From positions 13,392,001-13,456,000 of the forward strand of contig OX597833.1 of assembly GCA_951406725.2 (NCBI GenBank): 64,000 nucleotides of DNA. Direction: 5' to 3'. Positions 2,190 through 61,013 of this stretch are shown here, piece after piece; positions within the stretch are counted from its first letter, which is position 1, and each line of letters begins with the position of its first letter. The notes under the pieces were generated by a model. The model saw nothing but the letters and a program-made list of their open reading frames with translations. It did not search any database and was not told the origin of the DNA. The position numbers and the translations under genes were made by a program. This DNA comes from Octopus vulgaris (taxonomy: Eukaryota).

Positions 2190-2398
2190 GTCATTCAAAA
2201 TGTGACCGTGTGTATACCGTTGGCAATTTTTTTCCTCCGTCTTCCCTTCTTTGAATCTTTCCTTTTCCTATGTTTCTGATGAAGAGCTCCGCTCGAAACG
2301 TTAAACCCTCCTTCTTTTCTTCCTTCCTGGGCGTCTAATAATACTATATTTGTTCCACGTCCTCGCATTGTTATGTTTTCATGTTTGGATTAACTGTA
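2190..2398 (+). mobile_element. Short HHR-bearing element, family F1 (Penelope-like terminal repeat)
   Basis: Contains the HHR at 2272-2306 and ends in (TA)n. Related sequence at 21412, 29815, 38848 and 48301. Confidence 0.65.
2272..2306 (+). ncRNA. Minimal type I hammerhead ribozyme (core CUGAUGA, GUU site)
   Basis: GTTT-CTGATGA-A-GAGC tcc GCTC-GAAA-CG-TT-AAAC: stem I GTTT/AAAC, stem II GAGC/GCTC, palindromic stem III ACGT. Confidence 0.8.
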
Positions 2399-2621
2399 CA
2401 TATATATATATATATATATATATATATATATATATATATATATATATATATATATATATATATATATATATATATATATATATATATATATATATATATA
2501 TACATACATACATATATTGATAGAAATGGTAAGACAACAAAAGAATGAAAGAGACTTCGATATTATGCAAATAGAGGAATTTATCTGTAAATGTAATATG
2601 TGACAATTATTCGGTAGCCAT

Positions 2622-2682
2622 GATAGAACTCCGAGTTTAGGATGTCGGGCCGGAAACCCACGCCACCATCTCTTCAGTTATA
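2622..2682 (-). ncRNA. Degenerate hammerhead ribozyme in a TA-flanked element (2518-2700)
   Basis: Minus strand CTGAAGA-GATG...CATC-C-TAAA(GAAA mutated)-CTCGGAG-TT. Stem I is poor. Confidence 0.4.
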
Positions 2683-2987
2683 CGGCCATCGGAAAAATGA
2701 CTCAAACAAATAAAAGAATAAAAGAATATATATATATTGTGTGTGTGTGTGTATGTGTGTGTGTGTGTATGTGTGTGTACGTATCAGGAATCTATGTATA
2801 CAAATGAATGGGTGAGGGGTAATTTTCTTTAAGCTAGCGTCCTTACAGTTTAAAAGTCATCTGCTCCAAATACACGCACACACGTATGCACGCGCACGCA
2901 CACCGGAAGCTTAAACAAAAAAAGCTAAGTATTCTCAAAGCATCCTTCTAATGTTACAAGTTTGTTTCATTTGCAATGCTTCCGCCG

Positions 2988-4560
2988 TGTTGTTGTTGTT
3001 GTTGTTGTTGTCATTGCCGTACTTATTTTGTTGCAGTTGATGTTGTTGTAGCTGCACACCATCTGTAGTAGTCGTAGTAGTCGTAGTAGTAGTAGTAGTA
3101 GTAGTAGTGGTGGTGGTGGTGGTGGCGGTGGTGGCGGTGGTGGCGGTGTTGGTGGTGGTGGTGGTGGTGGTGGTGGTAGTAGTAGTAGTAGTAGTAGTAG
3201 TAGTAGTAGTAATGGTGGTGGTGGTGGTAGCAGTAGTAGTAGTAGTAGTATGGTGGTGGTGGTGGTGTGGTGGTGGTGCTGGTGGCGGTGTTAGTAGCGG
3301 CGGCATCATCATCCTCATAAGTAGTAGTAGTAGTAGTAGTAGTAGTAGTGGTGGTGTAGTAGTAGTAGTAGTAGTAGTAGTAGTAGTAGTGGTGGTGGTG
3401 GTAGTGGTAGTGGTAATAGTAGTAGTTGTAGTAGTAATAGTAGTAATAGTAGTAGTAATGGTGGTGGTAGTTGTAGTAGTAGTAATGGTGGTAGTGGTGG
3501 TGGTAGTAGTAGTAGTAGTAGTAGTGGTAGAAGTGGTAGTGGTAGTTGTTGTAGTAGTAGTAGTAGTGGTGGTAGTGGTAGTAGTAGTAGTTGTTGTTGT
3601 AGTAGTAGCAGTAGCAGTAGTAGTAGTAGTAGTAGTAGTAGTAATGGTGGTGGTAGTAGTAGTAGTAGTAGTAGTAGTAGTAGTAGTTAGTGGTGGTTGT
3701 CGTTTGTTGCCAGGGTCTCCAGTTGTTGCCCTTACAATTCCTAACACAATCACAAACTCCTTTCCTCTTCTGTCTTCTAAATTTTTCCTGGTCTCTTCAC
3801 ATGAATCCTACCCCCCACCCCAATCCCCCTTGGGTGTGGCTCTGTGCCAGAGAAGCATCACTTGCCGTCGAGGGTAGCGGAGGTGGTGGTGGTGGCGACA
3901 GCTGTGGCGATTATGGTGGTGGTGGTGCTGGCGGCGCTGATGGTGTTGACGATGTTGCTGGTGGTGATGGTAGAAGCGAATGTTGTGGCGATGGCGGTGG
4001 TGGTGGTGATGATGGTGGTGGTGGTGGTGACAGTGGTAATGGTGGTGGTGGTGAGAGCAGAGGCGATTGGATTAGAGTTTGTGGTCGTCGTAGTAACGGC
4101 GGCGACGCTGATTGTGTTGTTGTTGTTGTTGTTGTTGCAGTTGCAGTTGCGGCGGCGGCGGCGGTGGTGGCGGTGGTGGTGATGGTGGTGGTGGTGGTGG
4201 TGGTGGTGTGGTGGTGGTGTAATATTAGATGTTAAACTAATGGTGAGAATATCATTCGTGGTGGTGACGTTGTGGTATGGTGGTGGTAGTGATATGGCGG
4301 TGGTGGTGATGGTGGTGGTGGTGGTGGTAGTGGTTGTGGTGTTGGTGGTTGTCATGGTAGAGGTCGTTTTGTTGGTTGTGGTGATTGTGGTAGTGGTATT
4401 GTTGATGGTGATGGTGGCGGCGGCAGTAGTGGTGTTGGTGATGATGATGATGATATCGGTGGTGGCGGTGGCAGTGGTAATGGTGATAATGGTGGTAGTG
4501 GCGGTGGCGACGGCGGTGCTGGTGGTGGTGGTGGTGGTGGTGGTGGTGATGATGAACTGT
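2988..4560. repeat. Compound trinucleotide tract (GTA/GTG/GTT/GAT)n
   Basis: Directly visible. It generates the poly-V, poly-T, poly-G and poly-H ORFs. Confidence 0.95.
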
Positions 4561-58160: not shown

Positions 58161-58534
58161 TCCTGTTTTGTCCCTTTATGTTTCCTAATCATGTGTGTCA
58201 GCCCTTGTGGCCAATAAAAAAAATTAATTATTATTATTATCATCATCATCATCATCATCATCATCATCATCATCATCATCATCATTATTATTATTATTAT
58301 TATTATTATTATTATTATTATTATTATTATTATTATTATTATTATTATTATTATTATTATTGTTATTATTATTCCGTCACTGCTTAGAACCGAACTCGGA
58401 GTCTTTGAGGCAATGCGCCAACATGGCGTATTGCCTTATAAACGGTCATCGGGTGTTTGATTCGAGGGACATTTGGCTGTTATTTCAAGCCGATTATGCG
58501 AATACTTAAACGCTCCTTAATTGATTAGTTCCTG

Positions 58535-59235
58535 GCAGTGGTTATGGTGTCGGCGTTGGTCATGCTGGTGGTCGTAGAAATATTTGTTAGGGCGGTAATG
58601 CTGCTGCTATTTATAGTGGTAGTGGTGGTGGTGGTGGTGGTGGTGGTGGTGGTGGTGGTAGTAGTGGAGGTGGTGGTGGTGGAAGTGGTAGTGGTGGTGA
58701 TGGTACTGGTTGTAGTGGTGGTGTTGGTGATGGTGGTGGTGACAGTGGTGGTTGTGATAGTGGTGGTGGTAGTAGAAGTAGCGGTGATAGTCGTCGACGT
58801 GATTGTGATGATGGTAGTAGTAGCCGTAATAGTGGTGGTGATGGTGGTGGTGGTTGTGGTGATAGTAGTAATGGTGTGGGTGGTGGTGGTATTGGCGGTG
58901 CTGGTGCTGGTGTTTGTGAAGGTGGTGATCTTTGCGGTGACGGTGGTGGTATTGGTCGTGATGGTGATGGTGATGGTGATGGTGATAATGGTGATGGTAT
59001 TGGTGGTGGTGGTGATGATATTGGTGGTGGCGGTGGTGATGGTGATGGTGATAATGGTGATGGTATTAGTGGTGGTGGTGGTGGTGGTGGTAGTGCTAGT
59101 GGGGGGGGTCGCCGTTGTCGTCATCGTCGCGTGGCACTGACTATTTCGTTGATAGTACTGGTCGACGCTGCTGTTGCTGCTGCCCCTGCTACTTCTGCTG
59201 CTGCTGCTGCTACTGCTGTCCTTGTTGTTGATGAT
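58535..59235. repeat. (GGT/GAT/GCT)n degenerate tract
   Basis: Directly visible. Confidence 0.9.
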
Positions 59236-60391
59236 GTCCATGTAATTCTTCTTCTTGTTCTTGTTTCCCTTTTGTATCTGACAATTATTCATTCCAATTC
59301 AATATGTCCGCCATACAGTTTCCGGTAAAGTCAGTTTGGTTGCGGCAATCATGAAACCTATTTATACACACGCCACCAACTCAGCTGAATAATTAAGGAC
59401 TCCGTTACTATAATTAATACCATTAATAATGATCCTTTCTTCATCACTGGCAGTCGCCACCACCAATCGAACATACAAGAATACACACATACATACATAC
59501 ATACATACATACATACATACATACATACATACATACATACATACACACATACATACATACATACATACGTACATACATATATACTTATATATATATATAT
59601 ATACACACGTATATATATATTCATACATATATATATATTCATACATACATGCATACATATATATGTAGGTAGGTGTGTGCGTGCGTGTGTATGAGAGAGA
59701 AAGAGAAAGAGAGAGAGAGAGAAAGAGAGAGAGAAAGAGAATGAGAGAGAGAGAGAGAAAGAGAGGGAGAGAAAGACAGAGAGAGAGAGTGTGTGCGTGT
59801 GTGTGTGTGTTTGTGTGTGAGAGAGAGTGTGTGTGTGTGTGTGTTTGTGTGAGAGAAAGAGAGTGTGTGTGTGAGAGAAAGAGAGAGTGTGTGTGTGTGT
59901 GTGAGAGAGAGAGAGAGAGTGTGTGTGTGTGTGTGTGTGTGTGTGTGAGAGAGAGAGTTCCAGAAAGATCGATGAAGCCAGTAATTTCATTACCGATCAC
60001 AAAAACATGATTGGTTTGGATTATCCACTCCTCAAAGTCCAAAACCGTGAATTAATTAATGAAAGAAAAAAATAATGAATATATACTCGAATGCATATAT
60101 TTATTCATGAATACCTTACATACGTCCAACGTGCATGCTTTTATACATATTGTCGTACGTTTATGCATACATACATGCATATACATTTGCACTCATACGC
60201 ACACGCATATATACAAGCGTGTATGCATATATACATGCACGCACATTCATTCGCATACGTACATATATGTATATACACACATATATATTTGAGAAATCCG
60301 TCTTCTACTATGCATTAATATTATATATATATATATATATATATATATATATATATATATATATATATATATATATATATATATATATATA

Positions 60392-61013
60392 TTGTGAAAT
60401 AGAAAGATGAATAATCTTGTTGCAGATTAATCATAAGTTTAACCGATACCTTGGTAGCAAAAATCACAGCAGAAGACAGCACGGTTGGAGGTACAACCAT
60501 ATGGTGTTGCAACCGTGCGTTGGTGCGGATAATTGAATTTTAATATTATTAGTGAATTGAAGAAAAGGAGTTGAACGAAGATTGAACAGAAATCGTTTTA
60601 TTGCATTCTACACGTGTTTCGAAAGGCACAATTTACCAAATTCCGATTGAATAATGAGACCATATTGTGTCTTTCTCTTCAGGAAGAAATAGGAAATCCG
60701 TTGGAAAAAACAAAAACAGAACAGAGGCGGAGCAAAACAAATCGAACGAGGCTCCTAAGAGCCCATGGCCAAACTGTTTATCAATGTATGTTGAAAACGG
60801 GTGGTGGGTGCGTTGAAGATTGTAACGGGTCAGCAGCGGTCATTCCGGTGGGTGAGGGCACGGGGTGCGTAGATGTTCTTTGTGACCGAGACTAAAGTTC
60901 TGACTATTTAAAGAATATTAGGTGTATTGTGCCTTTCGAAACACGTGTAGAATGCAATAAAACGATTTCTGTTCAATCTTCGTTCAACTCCATTTCTTCA
61001 ATTCACTAATAAT
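60392..61013 (-). mobile_element. F5 HHR element, second copy, with inverted segment 60926-61013
   Basis: Reverse complement of 24826-25168. HHR on minus strand at 60606-60686. 60543-60631 is inverted at 60926-61013. TA-flanked. Confidence 0.85.

Follow-up and report, generated by a model that had tools for sequence, protein, structure and literature searches.

Microsatellite-embedded hammerhead ribozyme motifs in an Octopus vulgaris genome segment as probable footprints of endonuclease-bearing Penelope-like elements

The 64,000-nucleotide stretch of Octopus vulgaris DNA analyzed here (contig OX597833.1 of assembly GCA_951406725.2, positions 13,392,001 to 13,456,000; hereafter "the window", with coordinates counted from its first letter) holds 16 loci bearing intact or decayed minimal type I hammerhead ribozyme (HHR) motifs, which are probably the footprints of several endonuclease (EN)-bearing Penelope-like element (PLE) families of the Octopus genome, one of them, family B, stemming from a Neptune- or Nematis-type element whose HHR has a G3-C8 pair in its core that appears to be kept under selection. 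As judged from its sequence, family B is the truncated pseudo-long terminal repeat (pseudo-LTR) end of an EN+ PLE, and its source is probably of the Neptune or Nematis type. That many minimal HHRs derive from truncated PLEs is already known (PMC4209133, which, like the other sources cited here by identifier, is drawn on through parts of its text, describes large and heterogeneous sets of them, including opposite-strand pairs and natural U3-A8 cores); what is added is a clean G3-C8 core without an insertion, one that predominates in a high-copy animal family and is linked to a PLE open reading frame (ORF).

The motifs were sought in a window of which simple repeats make up about one third. A strict scan for CUGANGA cores with a short stem II returned a single motif, at 2276; every GAA followed by a palindrome was listed next, and, as this listing revealed well-paired motifs with cores other than CUGANGA, covariation at core positions 3 and 8 was allowed in the main scan, which accepted any Watson-Crick 3-8 pair and required a perfectly palindromic stem III and at least 7 bp in stems I and II together. 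Eight intact minimal type I cores were found in this way, as opposed to a mean of 0.04 (maximum 1) in 100 block-wise dinucleotide shuffles scanned with the identical descriptor, which had been loosened after the sequence had been viewed. Allowing at most one core deviation gave 11 motifs (shuffle mean 0.53, maximum 3; the three additional ones have U4C twice and A6U once), and the two loosest tiers gave 13 and 14 (shuffle means 0.74 and 2.59); none of the 100 shuffles equalled the observed count in any tier, and the same scan of the reversed and of the complemented window had no matches in either. Shuffled sequence, which a preliminary description of this stretch had proposed as a comparison, hence yields almost nothing. 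The motifs retrieved by the main scan have a stem I of 3-9 bp, a stem II of 3-5 bp and stem III palindromes of 4-8 nt, and all seven stem III words named in that description do occur after a GAA in the window. Its estimate of about 20 HHRs is a fair tally of recognisable copies, provided that the approximately 10 decayed or halved motifs and both arms of inverted pairs are counted; the well-formed ones number 8-11. The weak candidates at 2677-, 14060+, 16765+, 20438+, 37927+, 47749- and 52035- were left out of the count. Rfam produced no matches in the window at gathering scores, and an E-value run contained no hammerhead among the 150 of 672 rows listed, nearly all of which were microsatellite-driven microRNA models.

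Self-BLAST and alignments (with the locus boundaries taken partly by eye and partly from BLAST ends) group the loci into a family A, with which the element at 2276 aligns as a distant relative (A'), a family B, a C/D group (11878, 48069, 30257 and 38603, which are distant relatives), families E and F, and two decayed singletons, because of which the earlier notion of some ten unrelated elements has to be given up. Their placement within (TA)n or (ATT)n, on the other hand, was described correctly: 13 of the 16 loci end no more than 3 nt from a (TA)4+ or (ATT)3+ run, and 14 within 12 nt, compared with 5.3% of random non-microsatellite points lying within 10 nt of such a run (a control to be read with the partly by-eye boundaries in mind). 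Head-to-head inverted pairs were found at six loci by self-BLAST and at two more by alignment or eye; in families B, C and E one arm is longer than the other by 48-150 nt, i.e., there is a one-sided tail. Family C consists of a 359-bp tandem unit present in about 1.4 units per strand, with one HHR per strand; this is the only locus with a tandem arrangement, and no locus has two same-strand HHR units. The copies of family A have both ends in common in the self-BLAST.

This combination of 5'-truncation, inverted partial copies, one-sided tails and partial tandems is the layout described for PLEs, which are reported to insert with an inverted 5'-truncated copy, a tail at one end and a bias towards microsatellites (PMC8557442), and whose copies may end within the first codons of the ORF, the tail being the stretch between two reverse-transcription start sites (PMC11167929). 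A PLE origin of the families other than B is supported on the basis of the inverted 5'-truncated copies, the one-sided tails and the (TA)n/(ATT)n targets, and the picture of a microsatellite-targeting PLE fleet drawn in the preliminary description fits both this architecture and the ORF start present in family B. Four public sequencing runs with three organism labels, placed on the family B copy at 43786-43946, contributed 4846, 5634, 2927 and 767 contigs, so that, as gauged from contig counts alone, the family is represented by at least thousands of distinct contigs across the runs (summed depth divided by the median single-contig depth is 4.6e3 to 1.4e5, a ratio that is not a copy number). 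A 5' boundary near 43795 is common to the family, the flanks being mostly unrelated, and at 10 of the 15 joints listed (out of 24) the strand is switched at the 5' end, while another four lead back into the element (partial tandems). A pattern scan of metagenomes for family B had no matches.

The link between family B and an autonomous element starts from an ATG located 57 nt past the predicted cleavage site, from which the frame continues without a stop until the tail ends. When the corresponding 40 residues were used as a query, one match was found among 77 candidates (P0001, 90% identity), and all five family B pieces align to its very N-terminus (residues 1-9 to 1-31, the short arms stopping near codon 11 and the long ones at codon 30). 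Matches at 79-90% identity in the protein searches were to O. sinensis, O. bimaculoides and O. vulgaris. P0001 is an O. sinensis gene model in which the N-terminus of a PLE ORF (approximately residues 1-223) is joined to a methyltransferase exon, a fusion that reflects either a chimeric gene model or the exonisation of an element. A word-indexed search with residues 1-223 retrieved no long relative among 891 candidates, and a protein atlas offered only a 0.79 lead; an unindexed HMMER search with the same residues retrieved 17 relatives. One of the proteins, P0019 of O. vulgaris, is 80% identical (120/150) to residues 74-223 of P0001 and continues into reverse transcriptase (RT) motifs, and P0019 aligns with the 1047-aa P0018 at 37% identity over 462 aa (E 4e-98). 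P0018 displays DKS, YGLRKDH, FDVxxLY, QxxGxAxG and YVDD, which we take to be RT motifs, a C-x4-C-xx-C linker at residue 918 and a C-terminal VY...YIG, presumably that of a GIY-YIG endonuclease; its closest atlas clusters carry RVT_1, HTH_animal and GIY-YIG. It is because the ORF start leads from P0001 via P0019 to P0018 that family B is identified as a truncated EN+ PLE end. In the window itself, neither Pfam (45 of 259 candidate frames) nor tblastn against the whole stretch with 22 protein queries, one of them a full-length PLE, found an RT or endonuclease domain, and the earlier statement that no RT or GIY-YIG ORF accompanies the motifs thus stands in its literal sense, while overlooking that family B carries the first 9-31 codons of a PLE ORF. 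Likewise, "truncated or non-autonomous PLE derivatives" is a supported characterization, except that family B is better read as the truncated ends of an autonomous family.

As for the cores, leaving positions 3 and 8 entirely free returned the same eight intact motifs, every one of which has a Watson-Crick pair there (four C-G, two G-C, one A-U and one U-A), the canonical C3-G8 being present in only four of the eight; the preliminary description does not mention these non-canonical cores. In family B, G3 accounts for 98.2-99.8% and C8 for 97.0-98.2% of the summed contig depth in the four runs, and, as both are the majority in all four, G3-C8 is the state of the family and not a product of decay. 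Non-G letters at position 3 do not exceed 1.8%, and A and U at position 8 do not exceed 1.6%; each of the four runs also has a minority G at position 8 (window position 43823; 1.3-1.8%, 13-51 contigs), with no C3 reaching 1%, which could mark either a C3-G8 subfamily or unpaired copies, the run tables carrying no linkage. An A3-U8 subfamily, as might be suggested by the family B copy with this core in the window, was considered and not established: the states are rare, the run tables do not link them, and in a diverged copy a pair of transitions may be a matter of chance. Elsewhere in the family B motif, position 43857 in stem I varies in about 6-14%, the alternative letter still pairing as a U-G wobble; most of the variation, that in stem II and the change at G12 (1-3%) included, is CpG decay. 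In family D the pair is U3-A8, as opposed to C3-G8 in its relatives, and family A has U in place of A6 in all three of its copies (48369+, 29935- and 21531-, 75-78% identical), the relative at 2276 having A6. The family A alignment shows greater conservation in the HHR than in the flanks (p about 4e-6, with sites that are not independent): its columns are invariant at 25 of 36 HHR positions versus 41 of 152 flank positions with A' included, and at 32 of 36 versus 70 of 152 without it.

The most likely route to these HHR-bearing ends, taken over from the model in PMC11167929, is target-primed reverse transcription at AT-rich microsatellites that is aborted early. The RT/GIY-YIG protein of the PLE would nick AT-rich microsatellite DNA, and reverse transcription would be initiated at either of two sites lying within the first ORF codons, so that the intervening sequence becomes the one-sided tail; synthesis would mostly halt after 100-400 nt, often with a strand switch, and because of this each insertion would retain only the pseudo-LTR end (the HHR, a short leader and the ORF start), in many cases in a head-to-head arrangement. 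The stem III palindromes appear too short for a motif to fold on its own, from which it would follow that any cutting by the HHR is weak and takes place as a dimer within tandem transcripts of the source element, perhaps with the assistance of a protein, as the literature and the computed energies would allow. By computed stability, the dimeric HHR is favoured over two separate monomers in all six computable cases, and in the other two the monomer is unable to form; dimeric self-cleavage 3' of H17 is what is predicted by analogy with known hammerheads. The single or inverted copies in the window, having no same-strand partner inside their own insertion, are probably inert. That the 3-8 pair of the active fold has been kept suggests, as far as sequence comparison goes, selection for an attenuated yet folding ribozyme: C3G or G8C alone abolishes activity, whereas the double change partly restores it (PMC11167929; PMC8495972), and a pair maintained through a double transversion therefore favours selection acting on the active fold.

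Several observations weigh against this reading. On the protein side, Pfam called neither RT nor GIY-YIG on P0018, a PDB search with it had no meaningful match, and the octopus proteins end before the endonuclease; the search for an ORF link covered families B and C and found one for B alone, the family C peptide having no relative (1 candidate). On the ribozyme side, the four non-canonical 3-8 pairs come from just three loci and two families, and it is on two families that the argument for selection is built, with the U6 cores of family A and the C9 cores of family F, both of which are changes expected to damage catalysis, pointing the opposite way. The preliminary description had proposed that the HHR should be more conserved than its flanks, which is the case in family A, whereas the family B core is not demonstrably more conserved than its flank (variant table to 43902); even in family A only one compensatory pair is seen, a number that 121 of 500 shuffles reach. 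The dimer is the cofold minimum in none of the eight cases, and HHR mutants leave PAc insertion in vitro unaffected (PMC11167929).

A rival explanation shares the PLE origin but holds that the variant HHRs no longer cut, their fold being kept as a signal for binding or folding of the PLE protein, or carried as a passenger, with G3-C8 and U6 having become fixed since mobilisation does not need cleavage. We regard it as unlikely, though deserving of serious attention. The U6 state is common to all three family A copies, which are 75-78% identical, and the related A6C change strongly lowers Mg-dependent cleavage (PMC7151607); with PAc, the HHR mutants left insertion in vitro unaffected and reads ending at the cleavage site were not seen (PMC11167929), and Naiads spread without canonical HHRs (PMC8557442). 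A dead fold, however, would hardly be expected to keep a Watson-Crick 3-8 pair in eight of eight otherwise intact cores, or to pass through two transversions (C3G and G8C), each of which alone abolishes activity; nor does it sit well with a family A HHR that is more conserved than its flanks. Another possibility, to which we likewise give a minor share, is that most of the families are non-autonomous retrozyme-like units, i.e., short tandem repeats copied via circular RNA by a PLE RT. Family C would suit this best, with a 359-bp tandem unit that has one HHR and no recognisable protein and falls within the 170-400 nt of animal retrozymes (PMC7229834), and the ends shared by the family A copies, as well as the common 5' boundary of family B amid mostly unrelated flanks, could be understood in the same way. 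Family B, however, has a real PLE ORF start, the HHRs are minimal rather than canonical type I ones, and two same-strand HHR units, which an active retrozyme needs (bioRxiv 10.64898/2026.07.22.740005), occur at no locus.

Far less probable is that SINE-like (short interspersed element) units were mobilised by microsatellite-targeting non-LTR (LINE, long interspersed element) retrotransposons. LINE-like 3' fragments and many SINE-like repeats do adjoin microsatellites in the window (both family names being our own assumption), but inverted partial copies, one-sided tails and a PLE ORF start are not what such a process would leave, and the self-BLAST matches at the HHR sites have no 3' end in common with the LINE-like fragments; for family B this explanation is largely refuted. 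Practically no weight can be given to the motifs being chance look-alikes in low-complexity DNA: the lack of Rfam matches at gathering scores and the mean of 2.6 in the loosest tier of the shuffles could be held in its favour, and owing to the latter a few weak candidates may indeed be chance, but the shuffle counts of the stricter tiers, the empty reversed and complemented controls and the PLE start codon located 57 nt downstream of the HHR all speak against it.

The reading that we prefer, that of several EN-bearing PLE families leaving their ends in microsatellites, has close parallels in the literature. The minimal HHRs of PLEs in PMC4209133 share with the octopus ones the type I topology, a palindromic or absent helix III, a U-rich upstream flank, an additional nucleotide separating 9 from 10.1 in most motifs, truncated copies scattered in their thousands, pairs on opposite strands at a distance of 100-700 bp and a U3-A8 variant (in S. 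mansoni and Saccoglossus there); they differ in that the parts of that text drawn on include no cephalopod and no G3-C8, A3-U8 or U6 core, whereas G3-C8 is a family majority here. Neptune/Nematis EN+ PLEs have a C-terminal GIY-YIG following a CX2-5CxxC linker, as P0018 appears to have, and share with the octopus loci a (TA)n bias and an inverted 5'-truncated copy with a tail, although their tails are 30-40 nt as opposed to 48-150 nt here, and DKS is seen here in place of DKG (PMC8557442). The Poseidon element PAc of Anolis likewise has two end sites inside the ORF start with the tail between them, AT-rich targets and an HHR adjoining the start codon; its ORF, however, starts at stem II, whereas that of family B starts 57 nt past the cleavage site, and C3G/G8C, an engineered partial rescue in PAc, is the natural state in family B (PMC11167929). 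With animal non-LTR retrozymes (PMC7229834; bioRxiv 10.64898/2026.07.22.740005) family C has in common a tandem arrangement of an ORF-less unit, here of 359 bp, that contains a single type I HHR, and differs from them in having at most about 1.4 units per strand and a minimal U4C core.

Natural U3-A8, U4C and position-6 HHR variants have been described (PMC3088659; PMC7151607), while G3-C8, A3-U8 and A6U are not named as natural variants in the portions of the running text of these two papers that were drawn on, their figures being outside that scope; G3-C8 is on record as an engineered variant (PMC3884650; PMC11167929; PMC8495972). Full-text literature searches, with figures, some supplements and one likely relevant study outside their scope, found no natural G3-C8 HHR, and such searches likewise found no report of octopus HHRs and no natural A6U core (natural A6C is in print); Penelope families have been annotated in O. 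vulgaris with ribozymes going unmentioned in the part of the text drawn on (PMC13282606). The function of PLE hammerheads has been called unclear (PMC8557442), and cleavage was found to be dispensable in vitro (PMC11167929). We would put at somewhat under an even chance the stronger proposition that a high-copy octopus Neptune-type PLE has been amplified with a catalytically competent G3-C8 hammerhead, and that octopus PLEs sample all four Watson-Crick 3-8 pairs as well as U6. Were it true, this would be population-scale evidence of selection keeping the active-state pair, and hence cleavage, while lowering its rate, and the CUGANGA/UUGANAA descriptors would be missing whole high-copy HHR families in animal genomes. 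A G3-C8 family found beside U3-A8, U4C and U6 ones amounts to a natural mutant series and also implies that HHR censuses employing canonical descriptors are undercounts.

The individual loci are as follows. Family B is represented by a minus-strand copy at 7704..7845 (G3-C8 core at 7828, stems partly decayed, ending about 11 codons into the PLE ORF) that is joined by an inverted 5'-truncated plus-strand piece at 7845..7934, the tail of which (about 55 nt) extends over the first 30 codons of the ORF (27 of 30 residues identical to P0001); by a minus-strand copy with a tail at 9388..9585 (intact G3-C8 HHR at 9530-9571, ORF start at 9476) and its tailless inverted plus-strand partner at 9564..9704 (intact G3-C8 HHR, core at 9581, predicted cleavage nucleotide 9616); and by the plus-strand copy at 43795..43943 with an A3-U8 core (43818/43823), the predicted cleavage nucleotide at 43854 and the ORF start at 43911. 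The A' element (2180..2397, plus strand) has a canonical C3-G8 minimal HHR at 2272-2306 with stem III ACGT, and the family A copies are located at 48303..48490 (plus; U6 HHR at 48364-48401), 29815..30008 (minus; U6 core, with one change each in stems III and I) and 21410..21606 (minus; U6 core with an added U4A change). The stretch at 21635-21790 (minus) is similar to the family E tail.

Family C occupies 11069..12080, where two partial tandems of the 359-bp unit lie in inverted orientation to each other, with a 48-nt tail on the minus copy only and one U4C HHR per strand (cores at 11323- and 11878+, stem III ACCATGGT). Its relatives are a minus-strand element at 30048..30378 (with stem III ACTAGT, a decayed stem I and a canonical core at 30257), another at 47866..48215 (minus; with stem III ACCTAGGT, decayed stems, a canonical core at 48069 and a short inverted tailed piece at about 48120-48215) and family D at 38480..38810 (plus; intact U3-A8 HHR at 38597-38639, stem III ACGCGT), which has a distant family F relative with a decayed HHR head-to-head to it at 38228-38470 (minus). 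The members of the C/D group stop just past a small GCCAYAT...TGGC hairpin (12045-12075, 38780-38800, 30060-30080 and 47880-47900) that includes an ATG in C and D and is a candidate for either the ORF start or a signal at which reverse transcription begins. The family E inverted pair at 24630..25166 has intact C3-G8 HHRs with a long stem II (24695-24774 minus and 24872-24951 plus) and a tail of about 150 nt on the plus copy, and the second family E locus (60393..61011) combines a tailed minus copy (intact HHR at 60606-60685) with an inverted 5'-truncated piece that retains the 3' HHR half only (about 60925-60955). Family F is an inverted pair in (ATT)n at 23162..23640 (cores at 23321- and 23422+, A9C, imperfect stem III). 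The two decayed singletons are an HHR-like element at 10116..10372 (plus; C4 core at 10225 and GAA-ACGT at 10286, with unpaired stems, failing the main scan) and an inverted pair with split HHR halves at 39060..39300 (cores at 39150- and 39229+, GAA-ACGCGCGT at 39085-).

Apart from the HHR loci, the window harbours an abundant SINE-like family of about 430 bp with an internal microsatellite (20971-21405, 39745-40150, 46410-46870, 57230-57600, 62165-62570 and others), none of whose copies has an HHR match, and non-LTR retrotransposon 3' fragments adjoining microsatellites at 14050-14330 (plus), 49200-49800 (minus) and 57850-58190 (minus), which have no relevant Pfam match and which we assume to resemble restriction-like-endonuclease (Dong/R4) elements. 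A near-perfect inverted repeat with arms of about 190 bp and no HHR (44990-45390) is either similar to a miniature inverted-repeat transposable element or an HHR-less fold-back insertion. A decayed Tc1/pogo-like transposase region (33300-35500; weak HTH_Tnp_Tc5 match, E 0.041) contains an internal duplication of about 430 bp, tandem arrays of a unit of about 180 bp derived from a dispersed repeat lie at 15230-16610, 45860-46270 and 63230-63800, and a degenerate, interstitial TTAGGG-like tract lies at 53490-54000. Finally, a 233-aa stop-free frame at 117-815 (minus), without a Pfam match, presumably resembles a Helitron-associated protein fragment.

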